Assembly (NCBI RefSeq): GCF_000002075.1
Contig: NW_004797480.1
Location: forward strand, 734,001 to 798,000
Source of the DNA: Aplysia californica
Taxonomy: Eukaryota
Direction of reading: 5' to 3'
Length of the DNA stretch: 64,000 bases
Shown: positions 1 to 46,000 of the stretch, in pieces
Position numbering within the stretch: the stretch's first letter is position 1
Layout of the letters: the number at the start of each line of letters is the position of its first letter
Notes under the pieces: generated by a model
Databases searched by the model: none
Seen by the model: only the letters and a program-made list of their open reading frames with translations
What the model was told of the DNA's origin: nothing
Made by a program: the position numbers and the translations under genes

Positions 1-45
1 CCTCTCTCTCTCTCTCTCTCTCTGTGTCTCTCTCTTTCTCTTTCT
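1..45. repeat. (CT)n microsatellite
   Basis: CTCTCT run directly visible. Confidence 0.9.
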
Positions 46-48
46 ATC

Positions 49-550
49 GGGGGCTCTCGTGGCCAAGAGATCAAGGTGTTCGCCTCTCATTCAATAGATC
101 CCGGGTTCAAATCCGGATAGCGACATAATTTTTTTCTCTAAAATTGTCTCCTTTCACCTCCTTTCCTGCTCTCTAACAATGTTCTGTCCTCTGCTTTCGT
201 CTCCACCCTCACCCCCTTTGCCCCCTCCTCTGGGCCCCTGACTCTTTCTGCAGCCTTTCTACTGCTACTCCTTGGCTCCTTCTAACTGCTGTCTTTCAGC
301 CACACCCCTGATCTTCTGGTAGAAAAGATCTACACATGATGCCTTCTTGGACAAGGGCAAAAAATCTCGGAGGTCGCGTGTGCAAGTTGCGCACGTTAAA
401 GATCCATTGGTGGTCCAAAATCGATAAGAGTTGGCTTAGGCCGGCACCCGGGCAAAATTCAAATTTTCCTACCAACTGAAAAAGTTGTGTCCCGCGCGCT
501 CATAACATATGACTTTGTGCAGTTGCGAGCGCCGTAAAACACTTACCGGT
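49..550 (+). mobile_element. tRNA-derived SINE, full-length copy 1 (tRNA-Glu-like head, pyrimidine-rich linker, Meta/MESC-like core, shared 3' tail)
   Basis: Head has A-box-like TGGCCAAGAGA, CTC anticodon position and B-box GGGTTCAAATCC. Core GCACGTTAAAGATCC at ~391; tail GCGAGCGCCGTAAAACACTTA. A colinear second copy lies on the minus strand at 35327-35835. Confidence 0.85.
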
Positions 551-1603
551 ACCCCCAAAAATATATTTCTGTCTCTTTCTCCCCTCCCCTCCCGCCCACA
601 CTCCCTAATCACACCCTCTCCCCTTAGATTGTCTTGTTGGGTAACAAGGACGCAAACAGTTCACCCCCTCCCCTCCTTGTCGATTATATACTCCCCCCCC
701 CCTTATACACCTGTCAGCTAACTGCCCTTGTGTGCTGTGCCTATTTTAGCTGCCCCCGCCCCTCCTCCTTCCCCCATGAAACAACTTTCTGCGCGTTAGT
801 TTGACCTCGCACCCCCGTGACCACCTGGATTGTGTACGTTCTAAAAAGTTCAACTAGTTGGTTGGGTCGCGTTGAGAAGAAGGCTGCCACTAGTGGTACT
901 TGTTGGTAGGTCCAACTACTTCTTTTCATTCCCTCTGTTGTCTCTGTTTATCTTTCTTACTTTTTCTCTACACTAAATGACAGTTGTTCTGTCAATGTCC
1001 ACCTTTCAAACTCAAACAAACAAACACTTTTATGGGCTTGCCTCTGAGTTACATGCTACATGTTCTAGGTATCTTTTGAATCGTTCTGGCATACCCCAGG
1101 CTACCAGTTGCCATCAACCCCCCCTCCCCACGTGTAGTAGTTATGCGTTTTGCTGTCGCACATAGAAGTACAGTGTATAAGATGCGAGTTCGATTCCTGT
1201 GGGAAGATTTTTTTAGTCGAGTATCTTCTTTTGTCTGCTGGGATGTTGTCAGCACAGGTAGTTTTACCAGTGTCATACAGTATACACATTGGTGGCAATA
1301 TTATACCTGTACATGTATTGGATTTATTGAGTGTTTTAATTATAGAACCTTGGCAGGATGTGAAGGGTTAGAAGATACTGTTTTACCTTCTTTGCATTTT
1401 TATTGCTATACTGTGGCTGTTACCATACTGTTTTGGTTAAGGTTAGACTTAATCCCAATGGCAAACTAAGGGACCCAGAAACGTGCCCTTTTCCTCGCTG
1501 GTTTCAGATGGTCCTGAGTGACAAGATCATATATCAATAATAATATATATATACATATTATGTACATTATGTTGTGTATTTTTTTTCTTCATCAGACTGC
1601 AGA

Positions 1604-3106
1604 ATGACAGAAGGCATTGAGGCCTGTCTGCAGGAGCTCCACTCACCCTGTCATTCTGTGACGGCTCACAAGGAGGAGCCTCTGCATTGTCTTCTGACCA
1701 AGTCACCCCTCCACATTGAAAAGTCTCCATGTGGGTTCCCTTCTCTCCTGCAAACGTGGTCGGGGTCGCCCAAATCTACTGCAATGAACTGGCCACAAGC
1801 AGACAAAAGGAAACATGCTCGCTCTGCTCCATATAGTACTTCCCGACCTAGACGAAATAGCCTAAAACAGAATTTGTTCTTGGAAGGTTTCCAAGACTGT
1901 GCGTCAGAAGTTGTACGTTTTCTCAAAGAGGAAGAGCAGATAGATGATTCAAATCCTCTTCTCCACGAGTTGGAGTCTCATCTTCAGCGCGTAAGCCAGG
2001 TTATCTGCCAGGAAAAGATTGAGGACGTGGACAGCGAGTCAGACTCTCTGAACAGCTCTGCCTGCTCAGGCTACTCATCTAGTCCTGGGCGTGCCAGTCC
2101 GGCTTGTTTGCACCACGCGTCAACGTCTCAGCTCAACTCCCCAACTTTTTCTACCTTCACAAGGATATCTGAGCTGGATGCGTCTCTGAGTGAGTGTGAA
2201 GTTACATCGTCATCACAAATGACAGCTCAAGAGATGAATCAGAGCCACTCTCCAATTGCTGAACCTGGGTTGTCTCAAAATTTATCTGTGTCTGACTTAG
2301 TGGACAACTTTGGCGCTCATTTAGCTTCATGCACTGACAACCCAGACAATAATATATCACCCTCATTGTGTGGAAGTAGTGCAGTGCAGGGTTCATGTGT
2401 TCTATCTTTACAACAACTGGCCCTGTCAGTGGTCTCTCAGCAAAAACATTCTGAAACACCTCTAGGTAAGGGGAAACCGGACACTGTTTCAGAATCACTT
2501 TTTTCTCTTGTGCAATATGGGTGTTCTATACACCCTTCAACGACTGTGTCACTTCCCCGCCATCCCCAGACTCTCTGTGGTCTGAATTTGTCCCAATTGT
2601 CCGATCAAAGACTCTCAACTGACTCAACTCTTCCTTCCGGGAGTACACAAATGCCCCAAATGAGCTGGGCACTGAAGAGTTCAAGTACTACCTCACCTTC
2701 CACCCCCACCTTTATGAACAACACAATAGATACACCAAGTACGTCTTTGCAGCACATCAGCTCGATCTTAGAACTGAAACCCAACTTTTTGCCTGGTATA
2801 GGAACCTCATCTCTGGCATCAGGTAATTTTGCAGATATTCTGTTAAGTATAGAGTCATGTCAGCATCACCATGACCCCAAAGTTCGTGCTCTGGCTGATG
2901 AACTTGTCCACCTCATACATAGTACTGGTTCAGATGATGAGGAGGAGGATGATGATGATGTTTCAGATGAGGATGATGATTTACAGGACGAGGACCAGCA
3001 AGATGTGGACTCAGACTCTGGTGTAGAAAATGTTGAGGACAATAGGTCTGATGTGACAGTTCAGAGTATCGATTGGGGAAGCCCAGTGGACATGATAGAA
3101 CAGTGA
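1604..3106 (+). CDS. Hairy-Orange domain protein (~500 aa in a single large exon; no bHLH or WRPW visible in the window)
   Basis: 1.5 kb stop-free ORF after a splice acceptor (ttttcttcatcag, AG 1594-1595). FLEGFQDCASEVVRFLKEEEQIDDSNPLLHELESHL (1877-1984) matches the HEY/HES/cwo Orange pattern. Also KRKHARSAPY (PY-NLS-like), a Ser-rich middle and an acidic D/E tract near the C-terminus. Confidence 0.8.
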   Translation: MTEGIEACLQELHSPCHSVTAHKEEPLHCLLTKSPLHIEKSPCGFPSLLQTWSGSPKSTAMNWPQADKRKHARSAPYSTSRPRRNSLKQNLFLEGFQDCASEVVRFLKEEEQIDDSNPLLHELESHLQRVSQVICQEKIEDVDSESDSLNSSACSGYSSSPGRASPACLHHASTSQLNSPTFSTFTRISELDASLSECEVTSSSQMTAQEMNQSHSPIAEPGLSQNLSVSDLVDNFGAHLASCTDNPDNNISPSLCGSSAVQGSCVLSLQQLALSVVSQQKHSETPLGKGKPDTVSESLFSLVQYGCSIHPSTTVSLPRHPQTLCGLNLSQLSDQRLSTDSTLPSGSTQMPQMSWALKSSSTTSPSTPTFMNNTIDTPSTSLQHISSILELKPNFLPGIGTSSLASGNFADILLSIESCQHHHDPKVRALADELVHLIHSTGSDDEEEDDDDVSDEDDDLQDEDQQDVDSDSGVENVEDNRSDVTVQSIDWGSPVDMIEQ

Positions 3107-3346
3107 TTCAAGTTCAGGCTAGTCATTCATGAAAGAGACTTTGCGAGCATTAGAATATTAGTAGATGTTATAAATTGAATCTGTAAGACAGTTCGACTTT
3201 GCAATGTTCCTTACTTTTTGTCTATGGTGGAAAAATCGTTATCATTAGATTAGATGAATCTCTGATGTCCTTGATTAAGTCTTTAGACTAGAGTTAAAAC
3301 TTTATTTTATCTGGATTATATTTTCCTGCACGATAGTTTATTATTT

Positions 3347-3490
3347 CATCATCATCATCATCTGGTGCATTGTCGACTGGTGTGGGCGATCATGACCTCC
3401 ACTTCTCTCTGTTCTGCAGCTATCTATTGATTGTCCATGAGTATGTTACTAAGCCCTTCTTTAATAGTAACATGTTATTGGGGTAAAGTC
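3347..3490 (-). mobile_element. RTE-clade LINE 3' end fragment in the 3' UTR of the Orange gene
   Basis: Minus strand reads ...QNREKWRS..., followed shortly by a (GAT)n tail, typical of RTE 3' termini. Confidence 0.55.
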
Positions 3491-6400
3491 TGTTACTCAG
3501 AAGAGACTGTTTTGATTTTGACAGTCAATAACTTTTCATGCTTTTGTGACTTTTGACTGGACATAATTCTTGACGCTGACCAATGCACATAAAGGCATGC
3601 ACATAGTCTTTCCTGAGCCATGTGTTCAAATGCAAACATACGTACATCAGTGACAGAGTAGTGGCAATGGAAATGTAGCTTTCACCAATCCTTTAAATTA
3701 TAAGAGAAGATAATAGAATGACTCTTGCAGCTAGAGAAGTAATATGGCCTCTTGTGCTCTGACACACTTTGAGATGATTCTCTCTGTTCTCTAGGCATAC
3801 TGGGTTTCTCATGTCATTGCTGTCACAAGAATCTAAGTAAATTCCTGTATTTGCCTTGCATTGCAGAGTGAGTCAACAACTCATTTTTCATTTACGACAA
3901 CGAGAATAGTGATTTTATACACAGCAAATAACTGCCCTGTAAAATATGTACATTATTTATTTATTTGTAGTAAAATTTTATATTAATCTGATAGCCATAG
4001 TAATTTTGTTGTGGTGTGTCATACTTTGGCAGAGAATAGATTTGAAATCATTGTTTTTCTATCGTTTATTTACAACTTCAATGATGTTGGTTTTGATGAC
4101 ATAAAATTTACCCATTTAAAGAAGACTGATGGTTTATTTTGTCGTGTTGAATGTTAACACTTTTCTTTCATTCCTCAACTTGTTTGAAGTGGCAGGACAG
4201 CATGGAAATTTTTATTTGTGCTGTTACCACAGTTTGTATTATTCTGGACTTATAGTATGGGCCACTTGGGTTTGAATCTTTGTTAGGGGTGTTCCAGAAG
4301 CAAGCTCATGTGAATAGTTTTCAAAGAGCTCTCTGTTTTCATGCTCTATTGAGTTCGAGATGGACTTAATTTCCAAGTTCCAAACTAAGCCAAAAATGTA
4401 GCATTTTAAAGTATGAATTACGTGTCATTAGTGAAAGTTCCTATTGCCGTAAAGTAGGTTGAATGCCCCCATTGACACAATTTAGAAAGAGGCATGCCTG
4501 CATGAGAACAGGAGTGGGGTGATTTGACACTGCCTGTTGGGGCCTGCTCAGGCTGCAGGCATATATAGGCTACTTACATTGCAGCAGAAAGATGACAGTA
4601 TTCTTGTCATAGTTAACCAGAGATGCAAAACTTTCTGTGTGTCTCCATCTGATTGAAGACACATTTAACCCATTATATTTATATCTTTGACAAAGTAAAA
4701 GAATGCTCATATTTGGTTGATCTGAAACCTAAATTTATTTTTCCATTTATTTACCATCTTAATCGACAGTGAAAAAAGAACAAACATGAACAACAAAGCA
4801 ACCATTACCTTGCGTAGTAGTATGTTATTAACATTATTCCATAAATACGAAGTTACTATGCTATAATAAATATATTTATATAACTAAAAGAAAAACTGTT
4901 AAAGCAGTACATTAAAAAATCACATAAAATGAAATGCATTTTGAAACTGGATCTGAACAAGATTGAAACATCATTCACACTCATAAATAACAGCATCATT
5001 CCTAATTCATGAATGCAAAAACTGCCTCCTTGTAAAATGTATCACTACTACTACTACTACTACTACAACTAATTTATAAGAGTTGCTCTATGCTCTTTAA
5101 TTACAGCTAAAATTACCCCAGCAGACCCTACGACACTAAAAAACATTCTTGGCTTTCCGGAAAGCTTACAGTGCAAGTAGCCTTTTAAGCGTTAAAACTA
5201 TCCCTCAAACTACCAAGGCAGATCCTGACGAATTCCAGCAACCTGTGGTATACTGTATGTGGTTTATAAATCAAATTGTGACAGATCTACATGAAACTTG
5301 TCAATCAATAGGCTACATGTATAGATCCATATGCTGTCCCATAAAATTTAACTCATTCTTGTCTGAGAATTATCTTTCTATTATCATCAGATTTCCATAA
5401 TCTTCAGAAACACTGCATTAGAAGACTTGTACCGTACTTTTACTTTTACGCAGGATTAAGTAATTTTAAGGAAGCCAGCTGTTTTCACTCTGCTGCTCGG
5501 GGCTAACTTGCCAGAGTGAGATACAGCTTCAAAGCAGGCAGACAGAGACAGGGCCTACATGTAGATCTACTTAATTAAAGAATTTTTATAAATGGGAAAT
5601 CACTTCTGTGAGCAGATGTGAAGAGAGTGATGACACCACAGCAGTGATGGCATGGGTGGTGGAGTTGATTGCCATATTAAAAAACATACTCTATGGAAGG
5701 TTGAGATTGGAATCTGAGAGTTATAATTATAAATAAATATGTTTTCTCTTCCATTGTGCCAGGGCACTGCTGTTTTTGCATGGATATTGGGGGGAGAAGG
5801 AAAGGAGTCAAGTGATATATATGTTTTCAAATCCATTTATATGTCTACAGATAGGATGGTACCCCAAAACAAGAATGCAATTGAAAAAGCTCAGTAAATT
5901 AAAAATGCTATTGACTACAACCATTGCAAACTTCAATCTAGAGGCAAAAAGATGAGCAGAAAGCGAACATTAAAATAAAAAAAGCAATAAACCAACACAA
6001 TAAAAAGGAATTAGTGGAGACTGAAAACATGTGTGCAAAATAGACTATTTTCACCACTGCAACTGACTGGAGAGGACACAAAGTTCATGCTTTACCATCT
6101 TATAATTACTAGTGAAGTGTAAGGCAGAAAATAAATACCTGATTCACCAACTCTCCTCCATCATTTACTATATTTTACCATAAACTCTCAACTTCTTTGT
6201 ATCAGAAGACCACAGATAAGAACATCAGTGACTGCCGTAGAAATGAAATTATTCAAGCTGCCACAAGTCAAAATTAACTTGGAACAACGCAGAATGAACA
6301 GAGGAATGTTTAGAGATAAAGTTTATGGGAATGAAGTAAAATATTCTAAAATATCAAAGTAATAATAACACACAGAGTTTGTACAAATCCTGACTTGAAT

Positions 6401-6835
6401 CACATTCACAACCGCATATTTATTGTTATTGCTATCTTAACGCATCTCTTGTGTGTGTTGTATTGATCTATACAGTACATTGGAAAAAATCCTGGAACTA
6501 TGGGGGCAGTGTTTACAATACATAGGTAAATATTCATATAACATAACACACCTTAGATACATGTGAACACACGCTCACTCTCACAATCAAAAGGCCTTGA
6601 ACCTTGAAAATCACTGGCCAGATGTCAATATAAAATAAATTTAAAATGCAAAAAAATGGCGGTGACCATGCAACAATAGATTGTAGCCTTCTGCAGCACC
6701 TTTATATTTATAAATCATTAAGGTTACCAATACTTCATTAGTAACGCATAAATATATAAAAGTCTGATGCCTCAATCAATAGAATTGACATAATAGGGAA
6801 AAGTAAGAGGAGGTGGGCTGCTTCAACCCTGTTTG

Positions 6836-6884
6836 CCAGGTGGGCCAGCCCAGGCTGAATGACTGCCTGGGCTGGCCCACCTGG
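6836..6884. other. Perfect 20-bp GC-rich inverted repeat with 9-nt loop
   Basis: CCAGGTGGGCCAGCCCAGGC-tgaatgact-GCCTGGGCTGGCCCACCTGG; 20/20 complementary. Confidence 0.9.
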
Positions 6885-7581
6885 TAGATGAGACACCACA
6901 TGCCAGCAGAGAGACTGAGAGAGAGACTTTCCCCACACAGGAACTGATCTCATGTCTTCTATCATGTGCAGTGGTGAAGAGCCAGACCGATGCACAACAG
7001 GTGGCTGACCAACACTAAACAATGATGTGGTGGAGAAATGTTAGTGGTGTCTATGAAAGAGGACAAAAGGAAAAAAACAAAAGACATCATTGTACAAGGT
7101 AGCAAGATCTCAGACATATAATAAATACAAAGAGTAATATCTGAAATAAACTCAACAGATCGTCCTGAATTTGATAAAAATTCTCCATCCGCCCCCCCCC
7201 CCCCCCCCTCCAAAAAAAAATCCCAACAAAAATAAAAAAACAAAAAGAACCAAAACAACGGCGAATACCCCTAATACAAAAGTAGAGAATCTTTGCTAAT
7301 ACTAAAACATAACAAAATAACCCCCCCCCCCCAAAAAAAAATAAAAAAATAAAAACCAAACAAACCCCAACAACAACCCAGCTCAGTATTTTAATCAAGC
7401 AAACCTTTTAATTTTAAATAAATTCTAAGACACAAAACAAAATCAAATGAAAAATTGTGGTAGTTTCAACGGAGAGACATTGTAGTCTGACATGAGTCTC
7501 ATCTACAGCTTGATACATTTATATTTTATGTGTGTAAACACTGCAAGGTTATTGTAATCTAAAAGATGGCAATTCCAAATA

Positions 7582-8602
7582 CAGTCAAACTTGCCAAGAT
7601 GGCTACCTGTACAAACGGCCACTTTCCATTTAACCCTTGCGTCTTTTCTATTTTAAATTTCACTGTGTAAAATGGCCACCTGTCCAAAGCAGCTAGGGCT
7701 ACCCTATTTAAAATACCGAAAATGAAAAAAGTCCAAAAACCTGTCCAAGTACAGCCATGCAAATCTCTCATTGGCCAACGCTTTGTCATTTATGAATTAT
7801 GTATTGGCTCCTAACACCGTGGACGAGCCGTCATAATCCATTCACCTGTTGTTATTGCTACTCCCTCCAATGTCCAATCATGTCGGGTAGGTCCCACCCA
7901 CTGTTGTTCATCCAAGTTGACCACCCAGTAACAATAAATTTTAAGCTGCTGGCGAGGGAAACGTGTGGTACGTCATAACATACAAGCACCATCCACAACT
8001 CAAACACAAATCATAAGTGAGGTGACCAGTCACTGTTTACCCGGTCTTTAAAAATGAACATGAACTTGAACTCATGAATTTGCGACAGAAGCGTTGCTCA
8101 TTCTCTGAGTAGTGGCGACCCACGTGTTTATTTTAACCTTGTCTTCCTTGTCTGTCGTTTTGTTTTACCCTTGCAGTTACACACAGTCTCCCTCATTTGA
8201 TACACTTTGTGGAATTTAACACTTTTTACAGCAGTCGTGAGATTGTCTCTCTGTTAACCAAAATGTTTCACACATTCAATTCAGATAAATTCAGCTGTTG
8301 ATGATGGCATCAATGTAGAAATGTAATCCAGTGTCCTAAGCCTGCAGCCAACTCCAGTATGGAACTCAGAAGGGAATGTTAAAAAAACAATAACAAAAAC
8401 GTTCCTACCCCCCCAAAAAAATAAAAAAATAAAAAATCCCATTTTATTTTTTAATTAGAATCTAGCCTTATGCCAGTCCTTAGCCTGTAACCACCTCCAG
8501 TTTGGACCTCAAAAGGGAATGGTTTGTTTTCTTCATTTACATCAGTCCTGCCTAAGAAGACAGCCACTTTTGTCCTCAACAATGGTTACTCAGGTTCGAC
8601 TA
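7582..8602. mobile_element. pogo/Tigger-type MITE (CAGTCRAAC termini, TA flanks)
   Basis: TA|CAGTCAAACTTG ... CAGGTTCGACTA|TA. Internal segments recur reverse-complemented at ~31519-32240 and directly at ~19370-19512. Confidence 0.65.
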
Positions 8603-8744
8603 TACTCATCTCTGATAGTAGCGATAGGACTGAGTCAAAAGGGTGGAGGGCACTGAAAACTATTGAAATTAAAGAAAGTCCTGTTCAAGATAAAAACTCT
8701 TTAGTCCAACAAGAAACCAAGGCAATGATGCACTCATTTCAATT

Positions 8745-8775
<31 letters not shown>

Positions 8776-10862
8776 TGATAATAAAGAGTTAGTGACTGGA
8801 GTACACTGTAACAATAATGACTATATAAGTTAAGGACATGGTGAATACTTGAGGACATAATAAATATATAGAAAGATTTAAGGAAAGATGGACAAAAGAA
8901 GTATACTAGCTGCACCCTTCAGCTACCCAGGAATAATAAAGACTCTGCAAGATAAACCATTTGCAAGTGTGTAAACCACATGAGTTAGTGTGAAAACAGC
9001 ACCTCTTCACAATTCAATATATCAACAAATTGCACTTAAAAGTTCAGGGTTCAAAGTTTACTATTTTGACATTTTTCTCAGCAAATAAACCCTCAATATG
9101 TGGAGAGCGTCTGCTTTGATTGCTGAACAACAAAATAGTGGTTCAATGAATGAGTGACAAAAACTGGAGAGTGCTGCTGCTGGAACTTTACTGTGAATTT
9201 ACGGAGGGTAGACACTATTGGCAACTGGCAGAGAAAAAAATTGAAAACATTTTTGTTTTGCAACTACCATATTATTCTGTCAAAGATCCCTGACAAGGCG
9301 ATAGGTTGAAAAAACAACTGAAGACAAAAGTTTGGAAACCCTCTTGTAATGTAGAAGTAGAAGTTAAAAAAGATACACATACTTCTTAGATCATCCAAAG
9401 CTTTGTGCATAGTCAGGTTCTGAGATATAATGGTTACACCATTGTGTAAACTTATTTTCAAAATAAAAAAAGGTATTTTGAGTACTTTCAAAACAGAGAA
9501 GTAATATCAAAACCAGACAGGAAACTGAGGATTACCGAAATGTGTTTGTAGTGAAACAATTTCTCTTTTATAAAGACACACAGATTTTTCTTTCTAGCCG
9601 GAAGACAGATAGATAGTGAAAAAAACCACACAAAAATACTAATGTACTAAGCTATCATTTACCTGTCCAAGTTCATTTCAACTTGCACACAGGTTTTCTT
9701 TTGCCTCAAGAATGTATTGCAAATATATATTATATTATGAACTAAGACAAAGTTACAAATTTCAGATGCATAGGAAACCCCTTATTTGCATGTTACAAAG
9801 AATATTCTTCTTGATTAAAAATGAGCAATACAAGGAACCCGAATGATGAAAAATATGGAAAGAAACAAAAATCATTTCATTCCTTTGATAGAAAACAGAC
9901 AGTGAATCACAATCAAAACTTACCACAAATCATAAAATGGTAATAAGGATCATTATTGGTAAGACATTTTGCTAGAATGCAAACACTGGCTAAAAATCAA
10001 AACTTAAATTTAAAGTATAAGAAAGGGAATGTTTAGAACTGTTTGAACACAAGATAATCGAAAAACACATACAGATATAGAAAAGCTGCAGTGAACAAGG
10101 CCATAAACAGAAATGGAATCCGATAAAAACCAAGAAAAAAATTGTTGACAGAAATTTTTGCAGCTGTGCAGTGACAGTAACAACTACAGGTATGAGTAAG
10201 CTGAGTGTCCCCATCAAACATTCGCTGGAAGGAAAGCACATAATTTCAAGACTAGATTACATTACTGAAAAGATACACAAACTTTTTGCTAACACATGAA
10301 AGGAACACCAATTACACTATGCATAACACACTATGTGAAGCTTTAAACCCAACACAGTGGCTTCGGCCTACTCATTTGACACAGAAGGATTAAAGGCATC
10401 TTATAGACCCCATCACAAACAATGCTGTACACAAAACAAGTGGAGTCAGTCTGTCAGACTATGGTACTGAAAAGATCATAAATATTAGATATCCAGTATC
10501 TTGAAAAGATGTTTTAGCTGCTTCGAGAACAAAACAGACGACAACTTGGACTTGAAAAGCATCTTCTGAAGCCAAGACTTTATGGGGAGTCCCACATGCA
10601 GGTCAATAAAATTACTCTAAAATGACAGATTTATGGAGAATTTAGAGAAGACAATGGCAAGTCAAGTATTGTAATGATTTTGGAAATCATAAAATAGTGA
10701 CAACATTCAATTGCTAAATTAAAAAAATTCAAAACAAAAAAGACAAGTCTGTGAAAACATTCCAGTGAACACAATAATGACGAGGAAGCTAAAACACTTA
10801 CAAAGACAACAGCTGAAGCGTAAAAAAACCAGCTCAGTAAAACTGCATTGCTTAGGTAATTA

Positions 10863-11630
10863 CAGTGTATAAGACAGAATCGCAAGGGAGCCACAAAAAA
10901 TTCCGTATTTAACAGGGGAATTTAGTGGGGAGGTGGAAGGGGGGGGGGGGTTTAAAGGCCTAGCCGGTGGGATCAAGGGTCGCTTGTCTGGTCTGCAAGC
11001 AGTCACAAGTGGTCTGCTATCCTCTCTGATAATTACATGCGCTAGTCTTATTTATCCAGTTACCATTATCACCAGTGCTTGCATTTCATAGGACCACTGT
11101 TCGACCAATCAAAAACAAACGTTTGAACATCTCCTTTGCTTCTACCCTTACCCCCATCCATCAGTGTAATAAGCACAGTCAACCAATGCCACACCTCACT
11201 GCCATGTAACAACGATTCAAGGAACTCTTTTCTCGACTAGCCGTACGATCAGGACGGCAGGCATAGGTCAAACTAATTTCACACCTCTGGCTACAAATGA
11301 AAATTTCCATGCTGGATGGAGAGTCATTCAAGCACTTTCACTAGCACTCATGAGATTTCACATCCACAACACCCTGACCATCTTCATCACTCAAGGCTCA
11401 TATAGATGGGGTAACATCTATCCTCAAATAGCACTCCTACTCCCCTTCCTCGTCTGGCAGCATAGCGTTAAGTTTAGAGCCGGCGGAACCAAACTTGTGA
11501 GTTTTGTTCCAAATCAAGGCTGAGCGGGCAAAGCATTTCCAGTCTTAGACAGTTCCCGTTTTATACAGGTAATTAAAGAGGACTATGTCAAGGGGGGAGC
11601 GGGTAGATTCCGTTAAGACAGGTTCGACAG
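10863..11630. mobile_element. degenerate pogo/Tigger-type MITE
   Basis: Right end TAAGACAGGTTCGACAG|TA with repeated AGACAG/ATACAG subterminal motifs. Left end TA|CAGTGTATAAGACAG is degenerate. Confidence 0.45.
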
Positions 11631-12771
11631 TACACCATTCATGAACAAATACATGCATGCATTTCTACATTTATTGCATGAAGGAAGACTTTGAACTTTT
11701 GAGTTTGTCGACTTAAAGAAAAACACATTGACATGACTGGTTATTTAAAAGAGCTGGGACACATCAAATAACATTTGTACACAATGCAAACAGAGAGGGA
11801 TGAAGAAGAATTTGCAAGAGGCACCTTCAATTCTTCGTCTTCAAAAGAATGCAAGGTTAAAGACTACCTTCAACATTATTGAACACTAAATAAAAAATAT
11901 GAAAGAAATTCTAAGATGTAAAAAGAAAAAAAGAAAAAAGGAAGTGCAAAATTAAAGTAACAACATCTTGTAAAAAACAAGTAGGCAAATTTGTGCACTG
12001 TTTGCACTTGCAACAAAACTGTTCCAGTTTGTTCAACAACTAGGCCCTATATGATAAATAAGCTCTAAATAAATGTGAAATGTACGAAAGAATTCTCAAC
12101 ATCTAGTCCAACAGGAGAGGCAAATTCGTGTCCAGTAATATTATTAGACCTTTACATTCTTTTAGTCTCCATCGAAAAGGAGAAGACTGACAGGAGGGGT
12201 GAACATAAAATCAAAACTTTTATGAATCATAAAAGTAGATGAAAATATGACAATAACAACTGTTTTTGACATATATATAATTATAATGCTGGTGATTCAT
12301 CAAGGCACTCACTTTCGTACTTTTGAGTTTGAGCAAAACATCACTTGCTGGAAATTGAACGTCCTCTGACAAAAAGTACTTCATTCCACAGGCATGCAAT
12401 TTACTTTTTTCTGTGCATTTATCACATCTGGGCATTACAACATAATGAAGGATTAAGTTTATTTTTAGATACCTATAGGATCTATATATATGTATGTAGT
12501 TTCAGGTGTAAAGGGAAATGAATTTGAATTTGAAATGTAGGTTTGTTATTACGATAATTCAAGAAGAGGCTAAATAGTCCTGAAATGCTTTGTCAACATT
12601 AAATGTTCTTTAAATAGTAGCTTAGTGAAAAAAAAATCAAGACACAATAATACCCCATTCTAATATTGTTTTTTGAATTCAAAGAATAAAACACATGTCT
12701 CTGTTATCATTTTGTCATGTCAATCGTAATTTTAAAAAGAACACCTGTCTATATTTCTGACAATATATATT

Positions 12772-13636
12772 CAGTAGTCTCCCCCTAAGATCCCACCGCT
12801 TATGATCCCGGTTCGCTTAAGATCCCTCTGTTAAAAACACCCCAGAACTTTTACTATACAAAAGTCACCCCTAAGAGCCCGCATTTCTGATAATAATTTA
12901 CGGAATAAAAACTCGGGCAGGCACAGACGATCAACCGAGAGGGAAAAGTTGAGATCAATGAACTGCCCTACGTGTCAAAGATCAGCCACTCTCGTGAATG
13001 TGATCACATATATAAGTGTTGTAAAACTCGATGAAACGGTACAATGTTTGCCCCAGACGGGTCACACCAATGTGTGAACTGACCGACGCTTTTGTTTTCA
13101 CCAAACATTGCACTTGCATCTCAGCTCTCCACCTAAACTTACATCCCTTCGCTCCAGAAGGGATCACATCGAACTGTGAACTCTTCCCTGACCACTGCAG
13201 AAGTTTTCTCTATTCCCGAATTTGCGAGACAGACTGAATTTTAATTGGTGTGGTCACAACGTAATGGTGCGTAACGACAAAGGCGGGGGAACTTGATCAG
13301 AGATGGAAAGCTATAAATTTTTGACAGGTAAAGGGGAGGTGCAACTGGACAACCATAGATTTTGAGACGTACTATTGTGAAAATGGCACATCTCATGCCA
13401 CTATGCACTGTGATAGGTCATCAAGGTTAACCAGTCTTTGCTCGCGATATGTCATAAACCCACCCAGGTGTCAAGTCAGTTCATTTTAGAGTGGAGGGAG
13501 ACCATTTTACCAATGGTGAGTCTTAACATGGGTCAACATTGATTTTTCCCTGGGTAAGTCGGCTAAGATCCCAGTTCGCCTAAGATCCCGCATTTTCCTT
13601 GCTCTTGAGGACCGGAATCTTAGGCGGAAACTACTG
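12772..13636. mobile_element. Tc1/pogo-type MITE with TAAGATCCC subterminal repeats
   Basis: TIRs CAGTAGTCTCCCCCTAAGATCCC / GGAATCTTAGGCGGAAACTACTG|TA. A related right end lies at ~20680-20766 and a related element at 39925-41592. Confidence 0.8.
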
Positions 13637-16246
13637 TATATGGTGACTTGAAACCTTTAAAAAAAAGCATATATTGCCACAAAAATGGTCGTTTAGTGTT
13701 GGCAAAAAGCAAAACTGACACAGAAACAATAGAGTAAGGCTTAAAAAGTAGGATTTTCATAGAGGCATTCCCAACCGTCTGTGACCCGGTACATGACATA
13801 TAAATGAAAATAATCTAGCTCTCCTCATACAGAAACACATGTAATATGTTATTTTCAGCCAATGTTTATCAGTGCCATGATGAGACTACAGCACTGAATC
13901 TGATTTTCGTTTTTTAAAAGTTTTTTTTTGCATAAAACTTTGAATACACGATGATACATTCAAATATATTTGCTAACTAAAATAAAAGAAAGCAGGAAAA
14001 ATTAAACAACAGTCTGTAGTCTTCATCAGAAGCATTCTCCAATTGTTAACCCACAAAAGCAGAAAAAAAGGAGTTCATATATGGACTTCTACTTCTATAA
14101 CATATTAAGTTCAATGAAAGAATTTGGCATTCAACCAAACAAGATTGAAAGAAAGCATTAGAATTATAAAATTAATAGAAGAGAAAAAAGAAACAGGAGA
14201 AACAAACAATGGGCAAAATATAACAAAACATTACAGATTTTTATATTTAATATCCTTGAGGTTTCAGTTGTGTTGCAGGCCGACAATAACAAACATCACA
14301 ACAGCTGCTGCAAACACAAAGTGGTCTACTTGAGATATTCAGAAGAACTTGAAAATTTTCACACACAAGTTATAAAAATAAACCTGCAAGCTCCGTGCTA
14401 GTTTCAGTTGAACAGTGGAATATTCAAGTATAGGATATATATCGTTTTTATAAGAATTTTACAGTCCTGTACCAAATACACAATTAAAATAATTGACAAA
14501 AGATGAACAGCATTGTCAAACATGTATACACATGTAACCTACTAAACATTTTTGCACCTCCTCTCCCAATATAACACTATGATAACCTCTGAAAATAAAT
14601 CCCAAATTATTTCACTTGATAACTCATAATTTTGATAAATAACTGGAAGTCTCAAAACAGACAAATAATAAAGAAACAAGTTTCCTTTCATCGAGAGAGT
14701 TAATGCTCACAGTAAAATGTTCTTTGCTTTATCTTGCTAAACATATGGTCGCTTTTAAGGACAAGCGGGCTAACCCAGATTTCGGGGGTTTCCAAAAATC
14801 TTGCCCTACAACAAAATTGAGTATTGCCCTACCTGCTACCTATAGGAGAAGTTTGGTTACATTGATGGGTATATTTGCCTGGTTATAGAAAAAACTCTCC
14901 TTGTATTTTAATTTTAAAGAAACTGTACAAGGGTTCAAAAACTTTACTTTCGATTTTCTCAAAACAGCATTTTTCGGGATATCCCCCTTGTGCTTAAAAG
15001 CGAACACGTAAGGGTAAAAGTATTATTTATGAACAATTAGAAATGACTCTAAAACAACTGATAATTAGAGTGAAATTGCAGAGATCACACTTCATTTTAG
15101 CTGAATTCTATTTGATGTGTGGTCATGGTCAGTCGGAATTTCTACTCTGCCTCAATCAAGTGGACCCAGCAGGTCAGACAAATGCCAACCTCACTTCAGG
15201 ATAACAACAGAGCAGTAAAAATGGATACATTTTACATGTTTTCAGTTACCTAATCTGTGACAAACATGGAAGTACAACCATTATATTATAATATTGATAC
15301 TCCAAAATTGCCTGGACAACTCAGAATTCAAAGAAATCGAATTCATGTACAAAGGGCTGTGAAGGAACTGTCATACAATGGTGAAATTTCGAAAACGTGA
15401 TTTTTATCTTTCATGAACACTCACACTGCATGTGAAATTTTGGGAAAATCTGATGAGAAGTGTGAACTTCCAAATATTTTTTCTCAATGTAGTGCTTGAA
15501 TACTAAAAGACAACTCTATTTTCCTTGAGATGAATCGACACTTCAAAATTTGTTAAAGCTCAGCTCTACCATAATCATACAATGGCATTTCACCTGAGCA
15601 TCTGAAATTTGTGTGATGACAATTCCATCAACTTTATATAACTATAATATATCAATAGCAACACATAAAAACTCCCAAAACATACTCTTCTATATTCAGG
15701 AAAGCAGCTTCTTATAAACCGTGAAAGAAAAATCAGTTTGAAATTGTCTTTGATAGTTATAGGTACTTTCCATTTCTCTCAGTAAAAATTCAAAATATGT
15801 TTTATAATAATCAAGCATGGCACAGAATATTTTCCTTTAGAAAATCTTTACAAAATTGAGTCAGGTGAAATTGTATCTCTTATTACTGCTATCAGCAATG
15901 TCAGAAGGAACAGATCTTAACATCATGTTAAAGAGGTCAGTGCAGTTAAACAGGATGAGCCCTTAAGAATTAAAGCAACAAAGAAAACTTAAAGGCAGTC
16001 TGATTAAAAAGACAATATACAGAAAATAAAAATTTGAAAAAATTCATAAACTTCCCCAAAACTCTAACATTCTTTTGATACTGTTCCAAAAAATATCCTG
16101 CCAGAGTTCCTTATTTAGTGAGATCCTAATGAATCACACTCCTGATGTTGCACAGAAGTTTTAAAATTTTGTTGTAAAAGTTTATACCAACATAATTGGA
16201 AAAAATGAACACAACACAAAATGAAAAAAAGTGGTGAAAGGGCCCT

Positions 16247-16729
16247 CTACACTGAAGCAGCTATTGGAATGATTATGAAGAACAAAAGAAATCCCAGGCC
16301 AACGCTTGCATAAATACACCACACTGCCAATTTCAAGTCTTTTTGTGCCATGCCCATTAGGCCTTTAGATTGTTGTCGCTTTCCTCTTCTCGCATATCGG
16401 ACTGCCATTAGACCTGTGATAAAGAAGAGGAGGACGCTGAAATATGACGCAATCATCACCTGCTCGAAGGTTTTCCACGGCCGTGGAACGAGATCAGCTA
16501 GAGGAATGTGTCGTAAATTAATGTCACTTTGAGTAGTGTCCCTGTAAGGGTTTTCTGAAGAGTTGCTGAACTCTGGATCAGAGTATGTGGAGTAAGCACT
16601 TTTGTGATCCTGGCGATGTGCCCCAGATCCAATCAGAGACGCTGAAGCCTGTTCTGGCTCTGCTGGATGGTCGAAGTCATTGCCCGTTTCATCCCCTTGA
16701 GGAATCGGCTGATGGTCTGAGCGGTTCAT
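16247..16729 (-). CDS. CD225/dispanin (IFITM/PRRT/SynDIG-like) membrane protein, 160 aa, intronless CDS
   Basis: Disordered acidic N-terminus, then PRPWK..MIASYFSVLLFFITGLMAVRYA, a basic loop ..G..GMAQK.. and a C-terminal TM helix (AVWCIYASVGLGFLLFFIIIPIAASV): CD225 topology. Good Kozak (GCCATG). Splice acceptor ctctctcacag ends at 16746. Confidence 0.8.
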   Translation of the reverse strand: MNRSDHQPIPQGDETGNDFDHPAEPEQASASLIGSGAHRQDHKSAYSTYSDPEFSNSSENPYRDTTQSDINLRHIPLADLVPRPWKTFEQVMIASYFSVLLFFITGLMAVRYARRGKRQQSKGLMGMAQKDLKLAVWCIYASVGLGFLLFFIIIPIAASV

Positions 16730-17672
16730 GGCTCTATCAAAAAACCTGTGAGAGAGTTATAAATTACAATATCAGAACAAAACACAGTTCAGTAGAGCAC
16801 GTTTTTTCGCTAATGTACAAAAATACTATTTCTACATGTGCTGAAATATCACAATTATAATATAAAAATAATGTAGAGGCATACAAGATAGAGTAGATAC
16901 AAATATAGATTGTGTCACATTCTCTTGACAAGAATAATGTATAACACGACTGTCAGAATCTAAAAAAGAAACAGNNNNNNNNNNNNNNNNNNNNNNNNNN
17001 NNNNNNNNNNNNNNNNNNNNNNNNNNNNNNNNNNNNNNNNNNNNNNNNNNNNNNNNNNNNNNNNNNNNNNNNNNNNNNNNNNNNNNNNNNNNNNNNNNNN
17101 NNNNNNNNNNNNNNNNACAGTATAGTATGTCTTTCTCTTGAGACAGCAACAACATACAAGGCTACTGAAGACTATAAACAGACAAACTGATGGTTCAAAA
17201 TCAGAAGTTTTAAAAATTTGACTTGCAACAAAAATGAGGCAGTTTGCAACCTAGTGTTTGTTTTACCATGCCACTCGGTCTTCATTGTCTAATATTCTTT
17301 ATCCTTGCACAAAATGAGCAACCAACCCCCCCCCCAAATAAAGCAACTACAACAGAAAAAACTTTCTTACACTCTTCCACCCCCCCAGGGCTCCCCTTTT
17401 CAGGCCAACTTATGAGGTTCCTTCACCCTTTGGTTTACTATCTTAAGGGGTATTTAAACCCTTGTTTTAGAAACTTAAAGGGTAAAAGTCAATATCTCAT
17501 TATTTTATATTAAGACTTTTTGCTTGTAAACTTTTAGTATAGTATGGGGTTTTACGGCGCTCGCAACTGCATAAGGTTATTTGTAAACATTTAACTCACA
17601 CGCACATTCACACTGACACATACAGAGTGACCATGACTATGATTGAATGCTAACGATTTTTAATTAACTTAA

Positions 17673-17909
17673 CCCTATCCGTACGCCCTGGGGTCATTTT
17701 GTACACCCGGGGTGGTATTCTTCACATTTCAGAATACTTCTAGTACGAAGATCTCTTTGAACTTTTCAGTACTTCTTAAAAAATTTTGACAGACTGCTCT
17801 GCAAAGCGTACGGATAGGATTAACAAATAAATTTCCTCTTTGGAAAGTGGTGGCACAGGGTTCCCCACGTTGTATGGATACGATAGTAAAACACGACGTA
17901 TGGATAGGG
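17673..17909. mobile_element. piggyBac-type MITE, copy 1
   Basis: TTAA|CCCTATCCGTACG ... CGTATGGATAGGG|TTAA. Homologous copy at 34168-34413. Confidence 0.85.
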
Positions 17910-19533
17910 TTAAGAAATAAATGAGTAATATTGACTAGAATTAGAGCTGTGTCCATAAGGAAGGGGGAAGAGTGGTGGTGGTTGAGCAGTTGGGCCTATC
18001 AAAATAAAGTTGATAAACCAAAAGGGGTCAATTCCGACTGTAATACACCAAGAAAAACAGACCTTCCACTCTATGAACTCTAAAAGTCAGGATCTCAGTG
18101 GGGAAAAAATTGGGACTAGGTGAACAAAATCGGGATCAACGACAAATCACCTAGGTCACTGCCAAGCCGACTGAAAAAAATTTCAGGGGTGTCCATTATT
18201 ATATATCTCTATGTATATTCCCTCTGCCCGCGCACGCGTGTGTGTGGAGTATGTGTGTGTTTGTGTGTGCGCACGCGTGCCTGTGAGTGTTTTATCATTA
18301 TATTTTAAATCCTGAAGTATTAAGTCAAGCTCTTCTAGTCCAAGTGTTTTACAACCCCACCCCCCCCCCCCCCCCCGGATAAGTCCCGAAAGACGCTTCA
18401 ACCACTGCACATGAAATTAAATTGACCAAGTCAAAGGACGGTCCCCGCAACACGCGGAACTCACATGCTGAAGTCAAGTCACACAGTGCGATCGCGCGAT
18501 TGAAACAGTTTTACTGACGGTCTTGATGACGGGCTCAACTAACCGGAACTTGGACAAAGCATGTTTTGGCGAAAGTAGATCTTGAGAATGTCTTAAGTCA
18601 GACGGCCAAATCAATACCACTTCCATTATACCTGAAATAACACGTGTGAGCAAAGATCCAACACCACTTTTGGTGAGTCAACTACTAAATTCAACATAGA
18701 CAGAAATGAAGGCAGAGAAAGATAGAAAAAAATCCTGCACAACAGACGGAACAACAAAAAACAAAAAAAACCCAAACAACCCGGGTACGTGCGATCAAAA
18801 TCTGGAAAATCTGGATGCTTGAGAGATTTAAGACAGGGATGAGAGGAAGGTTTGGAAAATAAACTGATTCATTATTCTTCAACGCCATCCCAGGGTTCAC
18901 ATTCCAGTCTTTCCAGACTTTCAATGGTGGACAATTCATGTTTATTAGCGTATTAAAGAAGGATGGTGGTAATCTCACGGCAGGGGTAAACTCGAGGCAA
19001 GACACCGGCAAATGTGAGCGACCGACCAGAATGTGGGTGGAGCTTCTGTGCTGAAGCCAGCCGAATAAGTAGGTCGACTAGTCGACTTCTTCTGAGACAG
19101 AAGGTGACTGTCTTATCAAATCATCGACTCGGCTTCGGGATAGATCATAGAGAAGGGGGAAAATGATGCTTGCCAGACGCAGACCACCGAGTTTTAAAGT
19201 GTATGCAAACCCCCGAAATGAAATTATAAAGAATAAAGCTCACGCATCACCAGAACTTTAAGGGGGTAATCAGCAGGTTTAATGTGTATACGCACATTTG
19301 TGCGTAAAGGGGAGCCATGACCCACCCCCCTTTCTTTCAAAAGAAAACAAAAAACCCTTTTGAATTCGCCCTACGGCAGTCCCAAGCCTGAATCAGCTCC
19401 GGCTTGGACTTCAGAAGGGAATGGTTTACTTTCTTCATTTTGATCAGTCCTGCCTATGATGGCCACCTTCCTCCATGACAATGGGTAGCCGTTTTACACA
19501 GGTTCGACTGCAGTAAATTACAGGTCAAAGTTA

Positions 19534-20188
19534 TTAGCTCTTTTCAGACGTATCGCCGATATATTGGTGCGAGTCCACACTCCTTGCGGACGTATCACCG
19601 ACAGCTGTGATAGGGTGCCTCAGTATTGTTTCGTTTTAACACGATCCGTCATTTATAATTACTTTTTATTGCTATTGAAAAACTCGGAAAGGATTTAGGA
19701 AACGAAAACATCTAGTTTCACTTTTTCAAAGCGTGGGTTTGGGGAAAAAAAGAGTGAATTAGTTCTTGCGGTCTTGCATCAACAAAATGATGTAACCGGA
19801 CTCAGTACAAAAATTCAAACAAAAATTGGAATATTGCTTTCAAATAAAAAACTGCGCATTCACAAATTTATGGATTTATGCTCTTGGCCTGTATGAAGGA
19901 TAACTATGCTGATTTGCTGTCACAAGTTTGGCTCACAATGTTATTTTTTCTGTCAAAATTTATTTTTCTCATCACCATCGCCATTTTTAACCCTTCTAAT
20001 GCATTGTTCAAAATTAATCCTTGTTTCATATTGGGATGTATTCCTAATTCAATTTCCTTCAATTTGATCATTAAGTTTTGAGTGATGGTTATCTAAGAAG
20101 TTATTTTGAACACCACCTGCATAGCCAAATTGAGCCACAAGTTAAATATGTCTAGACGCCCCAAAAAACTACGTCCGGAAAGAGTATA
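19534..20188. mobile_element. degenerate TIR element (unclassified)
   Basis: Ends TAGCTCTTTTCAGACGTA and TACGTCCGGAAAGAGTATA are imperfect inverted repeats. Confidence 0.4.
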
Positions 20189-28802: not shown

Positions 28803-29732
28803 CGAGGGGGAGTCAAAAAATAATGCAAGTTCATTTATAACTTAAAGAAAAAAGAACGCACTGGCAACTATCATTCCTCAAATTAAAGGGGACTATCTGA
28901 GGATCAGATTTCTATTTCTCAACATAGTCTCCATTTTGATCAATAGCCACTGTCCACCCTTTACTAAGTCTACATATGTCAACTTCGTAAAACTGAGCAG
29001 GTTGGTCGTAGGGGTACAGCAGTCTTGAGTTTTCTAACGTTTCCGTAGTGTTGACCTCTCGATGGTTCTTTTCTAGGTTCGAAAGGGTGGAAGTCTGAAG
29101 GTACCAAATCAGGAGAATAAGCTGGGTTTGGCAGTGTTTTCCACCTTAATGGGGTGATTGTCTCCCTTGTTTGGGCACTGTATGCAGGCAGGCATTGTCA
29201 TGTTGAAAAAGAACCCTCTTCCCATTCTTTGGTCTGACTCGTCGAATTATTGCTTTCAGTCGTTTCACTGTTTCAACGTAGGCTTCAGGATTGACTGTTG
29301 TTCCTCGTAGTAAAAAAAAATATATGAGAAACAGTCTATGAACATCCCAAAACACGGTTGCCATGATTTTTCCGGATGGTTCTTCGGTACGATGCTTTTC
29401 TGACAAGCATGTGGACACCTCTTTCTCTTCTGACGGTACATTGCTTGCTATAACGTCTAACCCACATATATACAGTGCCAAAATCTAGGGGTTAGTCCTT
29501 GTAAACATTTTGACAAGAAATTCAATTGCAGCTCTTTGCGTCTGACACACCTCCAAGGGGGCAGCCATTTTGATGTGACGTCATTCAGACATAAATCAAA
29601 GGAACTTAAAATTTAACGGTTTGAGTTCCAAAGTAGGCCTACATGTGCAAGTACTTGTGAGCTGAATTTAATATAATTTGCAAAATTGCGCAAAATACTG
29701 AACAACTTGCATTACTTTTTGACTCCCCCTCG
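28803..29732 (-). mobile_element. mariner element (irritans/Hsmar2-like ends), internally deleted, transposase pseudogene
   Basis: TA-flanked 29-bp TIRs CGAGGGGGAGTCAAAAA(A/G)TAATGCAAGTT with 1 mismatch. Remnants MAAPLEVCQTQRAAIEFL, KIMATVFWD..GTTVN..FQHDNA and PAYSPDLVPSDF. Confidence 0.93.
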
Positions 29733-43000: not shown

Positions 43001-46000
43001 TTTTCTTTGTGCATCCATGGAAAACTTCTTCAAGACTAAGGTACAGGTCTCTCTCAATAGGTGGGTCCTGCTTTTTGGCACCTCGGCCATGCAGACCACC
43101 AAAACCCATGCTCAAGTCACCATCTACTCGATCGTGGAACTCTGTAAAAATTATTAGCAACATATCAATGATGGAAAATGGGTCAATTCAGAGGAAGGCT
43201 TCACTTCGGTCTTATTTTGATCATCCATATTCTTGAAACCTGGAAAAAAAGGATCCAAACGCACTTAAGTGGATTGTTTGCAGCACTGACAATATGCAGA
43301 AAAGATGCTACCCCTGTGCCCACAAGGCAGTGGCACAAGAGAAGCATTTTTTCCATTTTATCCCTTGAAAGTGGACAGGGAGACCATCTATATCACATAA
43401 GATAAGGCATCTGGAAGATACAAATATGATAAATATTAAGTAAGATATTAAAAGGTGGTGTGATGAGTGAAAAGTCAAGTTCATGGTGTATACAGTCTGT
43501 TATACTTCAAAAGTGAAAGTGGGGGGTTACATACATTTTTTTCTGATTTTTTCTTGAATTAACTTGAATTTTAGGCTTTTTTTTCTACTTTTGACAATCA
43601 AGAATTATTTTACTCTCACGTTTTCTACATCAAAAAATGATTTCATCATTATTTATCTAAAATAACAATACAGTTGTCACAGAGGGTTGGAAGAGAAACA
43701 TTAACTTTTTCTTCAGGAATGTCTCTCACCCTGAAATGGGTTGTCTCCGCCAAAGAAATCTCTGAATACTTTTTCAGGGTTTCCATGGAAGGTGTAGCCA
43801 CTGGTCCAGGCTCCGGCCTCGCCACTTCCAGCTGGGACACCATTCTTCAGTCCCTCTTCCCCAAACTGATCATAGACAGCACGCTTACGAGCTGCAAGAT
43901 AAAGCAAATAAAATAAATGTTTTGTTAAAGTGCAATCATGAAATATGAAAAAAAAAGTTATAATTCAAACACAATGATCGCACACACATAATATAATTTG
44001 GGGATTATCCTTCAATTTAAAAATAAAAACAAATTCGTACAGCTTTTTGGGCATTCAAGCTGCATTCAAGCATTATAGCTGCATTACAGGGCAAAATAAA
44101 TGGTCATTTCTGCATCAATTAAAAAAAAATCTTTGAACAATACAAAATTCAAGCCTGTGTATGAACACAAAATTTGTCAATGTGAAGAAAATCAACTGAC
44201 GTATTTGAAATATATCAATTTCTAAAAATTTACACTAAAACTGAGTAAAATGCAAAACTTTACGATTTTTTCAAAATAAACAGTAGTGCGTATTAAACTA
44301 ATTCATTCAAAAACGTATTGAACTCAGAGAAGAGCTGCTATAAAATAATCATGCTCCAGGTGTTAATTATTTCTCTCCAAGTTTTGAATACACTGCTAAC
44401 GCTGGGAATTTTGAATAACCCTGTGGCATATGTTTCTTTGTCAGTGATTTGGACTGCACCTTTTCAACTAATGAATTTCAATTCTTCAGTTACCAACGTA
44501 AAGGAAAAAAGGGGGTTCAAGTCAGAGGAATCTGGCAACCATTCATTCATTCTGCTTATATAGTGTTCCTAAAATCTTTTCTGGCAACCATGCAAGATCC
44601 TGCTGGCAATAGCATCCTCATTACCCCCCTCTCCGTTTTAGACTTTGAGCCCACGCATATTTCTTCCCCCCCCCCCCCCCCAGACTTCTCCAAAACTTTC
44701 TCAGTGTGGTAAAATATCCACCTGGTGTAATGGTCATGTTTTTACTGTCCTCATCCTGAACTAGAATGCCCCTGCAGCTGAACCTGTTAAGTGTACACCC
44801 AGAAATCATTTAAGAAAAAAGCGATTATTTTTTAAGTTGCACACCAGTCTTTTTGAAATTTTACGCAGTATTGCCCTCCTAGTTCAAGTGGCTGCATGCA
44901 TAAAATGAATGAAAACTGGGGGAAACATTGCACTTTGCATGGGTCCTCCTTTTTTCAAATTTGGACACCCTGTTTTTGTAATATCATTCTGGAAAGGTGC
45001 AATCCATTCTTATCACTTTCAATATGAAGGATGAATGTAGTCTGAGATTATATCTTTACACAAAAAAATCCTTACTGCTTTCTTATTTCGATCAGAACTT
45101 AGTGAACAGCAGTGAAAAGTTCATAATTTACTGTGATAGAGCCGACTATCTTGAACACCAAAGTACAGGAACATTAAGAGGAACTCACGGTCTGATAGCA
45201 CATCATATGCCTCTGCAACTTGCATGAACTTATCTGAAGCATTTTGATCTCCAGAATTCTTCTCTGGATGATACTTCAAGGATAACTTCCTGTAGCTGAA
45301 ATGTAACAAACAACAAAATAATATTAAGAAACAATTGTAGACTGGTCTGTTTGTCATATATATCACTTTAACGAGCAGAGGGAGAAAAAATAAAGTAAAG
45401 GTGAGACGGCCGGAGGGTAATCTAAATACAGGTAGGCTACATGAATCAGCTTGCACTTGTCTTCAAGATTTATAATAGGGGAGAGTGGGGATCGGGGCCT
45501 CTACACGAGGAGACTTCTGATATGTCAATTCTTACTAAACTATGGATAGTGCACATTTTGTCACAGGATCACATAATGTGTAATTTGAGGTTTAGCTTGC
45601 TGTGTTTTTGGCCACCTCACTGAGCAAAATCTCTGCTGTGAAAGAAATTGTGTTTTTGTCAAGGGTGTATCTAAGTTTTCACACCTCAGTTTGTTAGGTT
45701 TACACGTCAGAAGAGTGCACCAATCCTTTCACAAACTATGTGTCTGTGCTTTAGGGTATCTGTTTCAAGCCAAATTCATAAAATGAAACCTAGCTTTCAT
45801 AATGTCTGTTTCAATAATTTCATGAACATGTTTCCTATACTACCCCAATGTAGGGATTCTCGACACTTCGTACAGGGGGTGGGGTGACTTCGTACACAGT
45901 CTGAAGTCTCCCGACGACTAATGTAAGAGTAGTTGGAATAAGAGTTTCCATAAAAATTGAATTTTAAACGTACACTGTAATCGGGTTGTTGTATTTCTCA

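Follow-up and report, generated by a model that had tools for sequence, protein, structure and literature searches.

An Orange domain protein without a bHLH at LOC101851806 of Aplysia californica: a conserved mollusc-annelid family and candidate partner of HEY/cwo/HES repressors

Group E bHLH-Orange proteins (Hes/Hey/Helt/cwo/Dec) are defined by a bHLH plus an Orange domain, and Hes and Hey proteins also by a C-terminal WRPW or YRPW. What, then, is a protein that has the Orange domain only? The question is raised by a stretch of 64,000 nucleotides from Aplysia californica (the window), in which an earlier note, drawn up from the letters alone, had described an exon encoding an Orange domain with apparently neither a bHLH nor a WRPW tail and had proposed an Id-like regulator of HES/HEY/cwo factors. 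The locus is A. californica LOC101851806, RefSeq XP_005099403.1. In the window, frame 1604-3106 comprises 500 open codons and then a stop; its C-terminal end is IDWGSPVDMIEQ, with DMIEQ as the last residues. The RefSeq protein consists of this frame plus 18 extra N-terminal residues, for a total of 518 aa. The transcript is built as follows:

G000:C210:~723745-724170 (L019:1729-2154), upstream of the window: exon 1, with the ATG at G000:C210:724125, 15 codons plus one base, and a GT donor after it
1576..1595, + strand: 3' end of the single 11,425-base phase-1 intron, a pyrimidine tract followed by AG
1596..4125, + strand: exon 2, whose coding part ends at 3106 and is followed by a 3' UTR of about 1 kb

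The conceptual translation of exons 1 and 2 is identical to XP_005099403.1, and in-frame stops precede the exon 1 ATG, the nearest lying 26 codons upstream. Contigs from 4/4 runs start at 1592 (four letters are shared with the donor) and extend to 4048-4125. The run X6 contig (2877 letters) places its positions 420-2877 on window 1592-4048 and 1-423 on L019:1729-2154, the two pieces being treated as one record as they agree in run, length, and depth. In run X15, one loose end of the contig matches the end of exon 1, which gives a splice to the 1596 acceptor, and another, a run of A's, falls at 4125, with a variant poly(A) signal at 4100. Pieces from runs X11 and X17 end at the exon 1 donor and begin at 1783 and 1740, and run X7 gave a partial piece only. 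That the runs are RNA was deduced from the splice itself. On the evidence of the spliced contigs and the RefSeq protein, the start codon most likely lies in an exon about 11.4 kb upstream of the acceptor, adding 18 residues, and not at 1604 or 1784, the two in-frame ATGs pointed out in the earlier note.

Run X15 also carries a 6-base in-frame deletion at window 2700, and no frameshifting indels were listed for the coding region in the 4 runs. Separate contigs from 3/4 runs cover window 4757-5794, just downstream of the 3' end, and may belong to an extended 3' UTR, a different transcript, or a repeat. AU-rich elements were not enriched in the 3' UTR (6 versus 4.2, p=0.23), and Rfam gave no match in window 1-20000. 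A second genome match, L002, which lies in repeat-rich DNA, was discarded as a low-complexity chance match.

We then asked whether a bHLH could have been overlooked. The earlier note had warned that coding exons might lie upstream, as the frame is open back to the acceptor; one such exon exists, and the caveat is settled by its content, 15 codons without a bHLH spliced onto the 1596 acceptor. PF00010 (bHLH) had no match on the 518-aa protein at E ≤ 10. A vestigial HLH that seemed apparent by eye in the N-terminus was rejected by a shuffle test, as no remnant rose above shuffled sequences (p=0.13 for helix 1, 0.43 for the joint score). Contig C210 was absent from the 64 PF00010 matches listed genome-wide, a scan known to be incomplete since it listed no bHLH for another Orange locus of Aplysia, C1031. 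No HLH was seen in 135 of the 192 open frames in the window and 60 kb upstream; these were the longest frames, of at least 80 aa each, with five that overlap the gene left out, and short exons would escape such a scan. It is highly improbable, and largely refuted, that this is an ordinary bHLH-Orange gene with missed bHLH exons, a decaying relic, or an annotation artefact. The incompleteness of the PF00010 scan leaves some room for missed exons, as do the intron and upstream DNA, which partly read N, and the contigs, which prove presence and leave rare isoforms and the true transcript start beyond their reach; against this, the spliced contig skips the entire intron, in-frame stops precede the ATG, and the RefSeq proteins of both Aplysia and Biomphalaria (four accessions, one sequence) lack an HLH. 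The claim of a missing bHLH thus held up. Relative to known classes, the Aplysia protein has the Orange domain of group E and not its bHLH, does not end in the WRPW or YRPW of Hes and Hey, and lacks the HLH that, without a basic region, defines Id/Emc proteins (class V/group D).

The conserved parts of the protein and the segments between them are as follows:

1805..1834, + strand: putative PY-NLS-like basic motif, KRKHARSAPY
1874..2026, + strand: Orange domain, two helices, at 109-127 and 136-159 in the residue numbering of the 518-aa protein
2027..2773, + strand: linker, Ser/Thr-rich (22% Ser), poorly conserved, predicted disordered, pLDDT mostly <50
2774..2818, + strand: block just before the hairpin, conserved in the alignment in long gastropod forms only
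2828..2923, + strand: C-terminal helical hairpin, family-wide, residues 427-458, pLDDT ~93
2933..3034, + strand: acidic tract downstream of the hairpin
3071..3106, + strand: conserved C-terminus (..IEQ) with the stop codon, standing where WRPW/YRPW would otherwise be

The Orange domain is genuine, if divergent. PF07527 (Hairy_orange) was the only Pfam match on the 500-residue frame, at frame residues 94-130 (window 1883-1993; E 6.7e-5), and its score of 23.5 bits lies just below the cut-off of 25.3 bits. A genome-wide PF07527 scan scored the same place at 28.8 bits, above the cut-off, as one of 9 Orange matches. In an AlphaFold2 model based on 53 relatives, pLDDT was 96-98 across both Orange helices, the second of which exceeds the length of the Pfam model, and the chain outside the Orange helices and the hairpin was disordered. 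The top Foldseek match was the Orange domain of HEY1, 2db7_A (probability 1.00, TM by target 0.74, E only 0.056). The Pfam match, the confident helices, and the HEY1 fold together establish the domain that the earlier note had read from the letters.

By sequence comparison, the Aplysia protein belongs to a conserved mollusc-annelid Orange family without bHLH or WRPW. A profile built from five relatives retrieved 61 proteins (E ≤ 0.001), including 14 with E ≤ 1e-10. PF07527 matched 58/58 of the profile matches scanned (E ≤ 0.1) and PF00010 only 1/58; in 18 further proteins, PF00010 was found in two Saccoglossus isoforms only. Names were looked up for 20 profile matches beyond the first three proteins, and most short members are unnamed predictions. 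The named gastropods are the heterobranchs Elysia (3 species), Plakobranchus, Bradybaena, Lymnaea, Bulinus, and Biomphalaria, together with Patella, and outside the gastropods we found Octopus (3 species), a chiton (Liolophura), and two annelids (Capitella and Ridgeia), so that the suggested search for Orange-only orthologues in lophotrochozoans was successful. Several members are labeled in UniRef merely as "Orange domain-containing protein". For family-wide counts we used a set of 68 members, which leaves out the bHLH-bearing P0030 and P0060, a HEY fragment without its bHLH. The sequence P0035 shares 86% identity with P0084 of the chiton (Liolophura LOC135461914), yet begins downstream of an HLH remnant in the latter. 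Some short members may therefore be 5'-incomplete, and we grade the claim by species: our data show bHLH loss in Aplysia, and gene models indicate it in other gastropods, octopus, and annelids.

Two members from Bradybaena, P0009 and P0064, have adjacent locus numbers, and one has a 19-residue extension similar in length to Aplysia exon 1; they are isoforms or a tandem pair. Among ESM Atlas Orange clusters without PF00010, the commonest taxa were arthropods (170 aa) and chordates (188 and 369 aa), with scores of 0.81-0.86; these clusters may extend the family or be fragments.

The C-terminal hairpin is the second conserved element of the family and was overlooked in the earlier note. Its second helix is amphipathic and carries a hydrophobic-x-x-hydrophobic-hydrophobic core in 59/68 members, a pattern drawn up after viewing the alignment, and in 59 members the 25 residues after this helix have a mean D/E fraction of 0.49. 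The last residues are EQ in 21/68 members and W/Y-R-P-W/Y in none of the 68, in agreement with the reported lack of a WRPW/YRPW tail. Both the Orange domain and the hairpin are conserved across molluscs and annelids and the linker between them is not, which argues against a decaying relic. The hairpin was considered as a second Orange domain and rejected (hhalign probability only 5.9%). It showed no clear known fold in whole-model searches, which barely test it. A possible folding of the hairpin back onto the Orange domain was looked for in the model of a compact 150-aa member (pTM 0.44), which had no fold match spanning Orange and hairpin. The basic motif KRKHARSAPY resembles the PY-NLS consensus. 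It is present as described; however, a similar basic-PY motif occurs in only 6/13 long relatives (1.04 expected) and is absent from 7/13.

Where could such a family have come from? The sole intact bHLH-Orange protein matched by the profile is XP_002738771.1 of Saccoglossus (Sko2738771). Within the Aplysia genome it matches the LOC101851806 locus best, and the two are reciprocal best matches; in Orange scores, the Aplysia and chiton proteins come top (97 and 113), the next being HEY at 77-80. Sko2738771 resembles the Aplysia protein in its Orange domain, the closest by score, and in lacking WRPW/YRPW; it differs in its intact bHLH (E 2e-14) and in the absence of the C-terminal hairpin and acidic tail. 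Gazave et al. 2014 (PMC4172395) could not place Sko2738771: their likelihood tree assigned it to none of Hes, Hey, Helt, Stich, or Dec, and their Bayesian analysis placed it within Hey; together with it, amphioxus Bfl109346 was left outside all families. Helt has been reported as lost in Aplysia and annelids. Saccoglossus has a separate SkoHelt besides Sko2738771 (PMC4172395), which argues against the lineage of the Aplysia protein being Helt.

The chiton protein retains what appears to be a trace of this ancestry. We built an HLH-remnant profile from six helix-1 and six helix-2 sequences and tested 19 proteins. P0084, which has no Pfam HLH match, scored a joint p=0.003 (300 shuffles), and its remnant matched Sko2738771 best, with 34 versus at most 29 in one helix and 27 versus at most 23 in the other. 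Its basic region is degenerate and, in an alignment read by eye, without the basic-region Glu, a residue of known role. In octopus, a helix-1 remnant reached p=0.017, a weak result for one of 19 proteins tested. With a degenerate HLH, an Orange domain, and a C-terminal hairpin, P0084 offers the best intermediate for studying bHLH loss.

The intron phase of 1 equals the phase before the Orange exon in 4/4 Aplysia bHLH-Orange genes whose acceptor was read; one in three agrees by chance, and the position is not anchored by flanking homology. PMC4172395 also gives the position of an intron between bHLH and Orange exons. The long low-complexity Orange exons of three Hes-like genes of Aplysia (G000:C1022, C1031, and C704; L012, L014, and L016) were read without their ends.

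HEY and cwo (Stich) share the Orange fold (2db7) with the Aplysia protein, which differs from them in lacking a bHLH and a YRPW. In Aplysia, HEY (C365) and the cwo-like gene (C4) are separate genes. The latter is presumably cwo-like by its sequence features. The designation also draws on the XRDP motif described in PMC4172395, and the Stich-specific motifs given there were not seen by eye in the Aplysia protein. We built an Orange tree from 54 columns of 43 proteins, chosen from those in hand, and 8 Aplysia paralogue pieces. In this tree, the family, Saccoglossus, and the half of the Aplysia cwo Orange that could be read formed a group with 96/91 support against HEY and HES, the half-domain sitting on a long branch. 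AU tests did not reject a sister position for Saccoglossus or for HEY (p 0.165 and 0.162). From these comparisons, we infer descent from an orphan bHLH-Orange lineage near cwo/HEY, in which the bHLH would have decayed stepwise and then been lost and the hairpin gained; the order of these events we infer likewise.

We then examined whether the Orange domain could still pair with its relatives. An ESMFold2 complex of residues 98-168 with the Orange exon of Aplysia HEY scored 0.62, against 0.40 for the best of three controls, with contact agreement of at least 88% and partner pLDDT of at least 73. In benchmarks, the mark was reached by 51/78 solved and 2/108 mismatched microbial pairs and by 39/65 solved and 2/126 mismatched eukaryotic pairs. 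The model predicts an Orange-to-Orange four-helix contact with HEY, with interface residues in helix 1 (109-121), and so supports docking. The HEY1 Orange entry 2DB7 consists of two chains, and since this dimer is already solved, the pass may reflect likeness to it or memory of it; nor does a pass identify which HEY/cwo/HES member binds.

We propose that the protein is an Orange-docking antagonist or adaptor that weakens repression by HEY/cwo/HES proteins, a proposal that we consider about evenly poised between right and wrong. The Orange domain would dock on these repressors, and the resulting complex would repress less because the Orange-only protein cannot bind DNA or recruit Groucho/TLE. 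The acidic helix could bring in a cofactor of the CBP/p300 type or cover the Orange surface that otherwise grips activator domains, and with its Su(H) and class-C sites close to the 5' end the gene would be a feedback element. As reported in PMC1950541, Orange strengthens Hes/Hey dimers, Helt-Hes5 binding goes through the Helt Orange, and Hes6 antagonises Hes1. In Hes1-Hey dimers, the same paper states, contact is HLH-driven and Orange only stabilises; an Orange-only protein may therefore bind weakly.

For the same reason, the analogy with Id drawn in the earlier note is imperfect. Id/Emc, Hes6, and the Aplysia protein likely share a logic in which the pairing surface is kept, DNA binding is dropped, and relatives are antagonised (PMC4357701, PMC8657788, and PMC1950541). 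Id/Emc proteins are defined by an HLH without a basic region, whereas the Aplysia protein has no HLH at all; Hes6 retains bHLH, Orange, and WRPW; and neither has the acidic C-terminal hairpin of the Aplysia protein. Since Id blocks the HLH surface and Orange only stabilises, pure sequestration is less certain than the second idea of the earlier note, an adaptor acting through its acidic tail, and the conservation of the C-terminal helix, as judged from alignments, favours the adaptor. A bolder extension, which we regard as doubtful, would make this mollusc-annelid family one of polarity-switch adaptors: erstwhile bHLH-Orange repressors that lost DNA binding in steps, exchanged the Groucho tail for an acidic helix of activator type, and, attached to HEY/cwo/HES by the Orange domain, convert Notch- or clock-driven repression to activation, a feedback arm that every survey based on the bHLH would overlook.

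The 200 bases that precede the longest contig at its 5' end (L019:1530-1730; G000:C210:723546-723746) contain a single Su(H)-type site, a single CACGTG E-box, and three sites of the class-C/N-box kind. The Su(H) and class-C motifs were defined by their consensus. The Su(H)-type site is the only CGTGGGAA in the 116 kb read. Compared with dinucleotide shuffles, their excess over chance is only modest, with p=0.043 for Su(H), 0.023 for the three class-C sites, and 0.20 for the E-box.

The conserved helix also admits a reading without any Orange-to-Orange pairing, in which the protein is a decoy on the activator side: the free Orange domain would bind activation domains of E-proteins or proneural proteins and shield them from HES, or the C-terminal helix would imitate an activation helix of this kind and so bait Orange domains. 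According to PMC4357701, the Orange domain of E(spl)m7 binds Daughterless AD1, and according to PMC4066744, AD1 and other KIX-binding domains use the hydrophobic-x-x-hydrophobic-hydrophobic core that we found in the family. This core is short and common, however, and the Orange-Orange model beat its controls, which makes a decoy unlikely. A pattern search of the genome for the E-protein activation motif found nothing. Rather unlikely, too, is a homodimeric scaffold, in which the Orange domain pairs with itself and the protein has new partners beyond the HES/HEY/cwo network, which it serves as adaptor or cofactor. It would suit the conservation of Orange core residues alongside the family's own distinct signature and the two-chain entry of HEY1, as well as the binding of non-bHLH proteins such as BOIP by Orange domains (PMC1950541); the HLH remnant of the chiton points instead to past bHLH-type partnerships, and the heterodimer model was supported. 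We retain docking on HEY/cwo/HES repressors as the working proposal.

The literature that we searched, outside subscription papers and supplementary tables, contained no description of the family or the gene, although an expression table may list the gene; this conserved mollusc-annelid family is apparently unstudied. Lophotrochozoan surveys of Notch and bHLH genes retrieve or classify by the bHLH domain (PMC8166818 and PMC5381572), and the Hes/Hey queries given in PMC4172395 all had a bHLH. A branch without a bHLH would be missed by design, because such surveys rely on that domain. If the proposal is true, the family would be a natural "Orange-only" class of antagonists or adaptors parallel to Id/Emc and a clean natural test of what Orange does alone, and the unplaced hemichordate/amphioxus orphan would gain a protostome relative. 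Aplysia, Lymnaea, Biomphalaria, or Capitella would allow the proposal to be tested, and should the mechanism prove wrong, there would still be a conserved family with a graded record of domain loss.

Elsewhere in the window, we noted a mariner-type transposase fragment (29149-29484, - strand), a partial DnaJ domain (45124-45462, - strand), and a BED zinc finger (48754-49104, + strand). Exons with HYDIN/CFAP65/CFAP74-type Ig-like domains at 57539-57868 and 63230-63607 (+ strand) probably belong to a large ciliary-protein gene.
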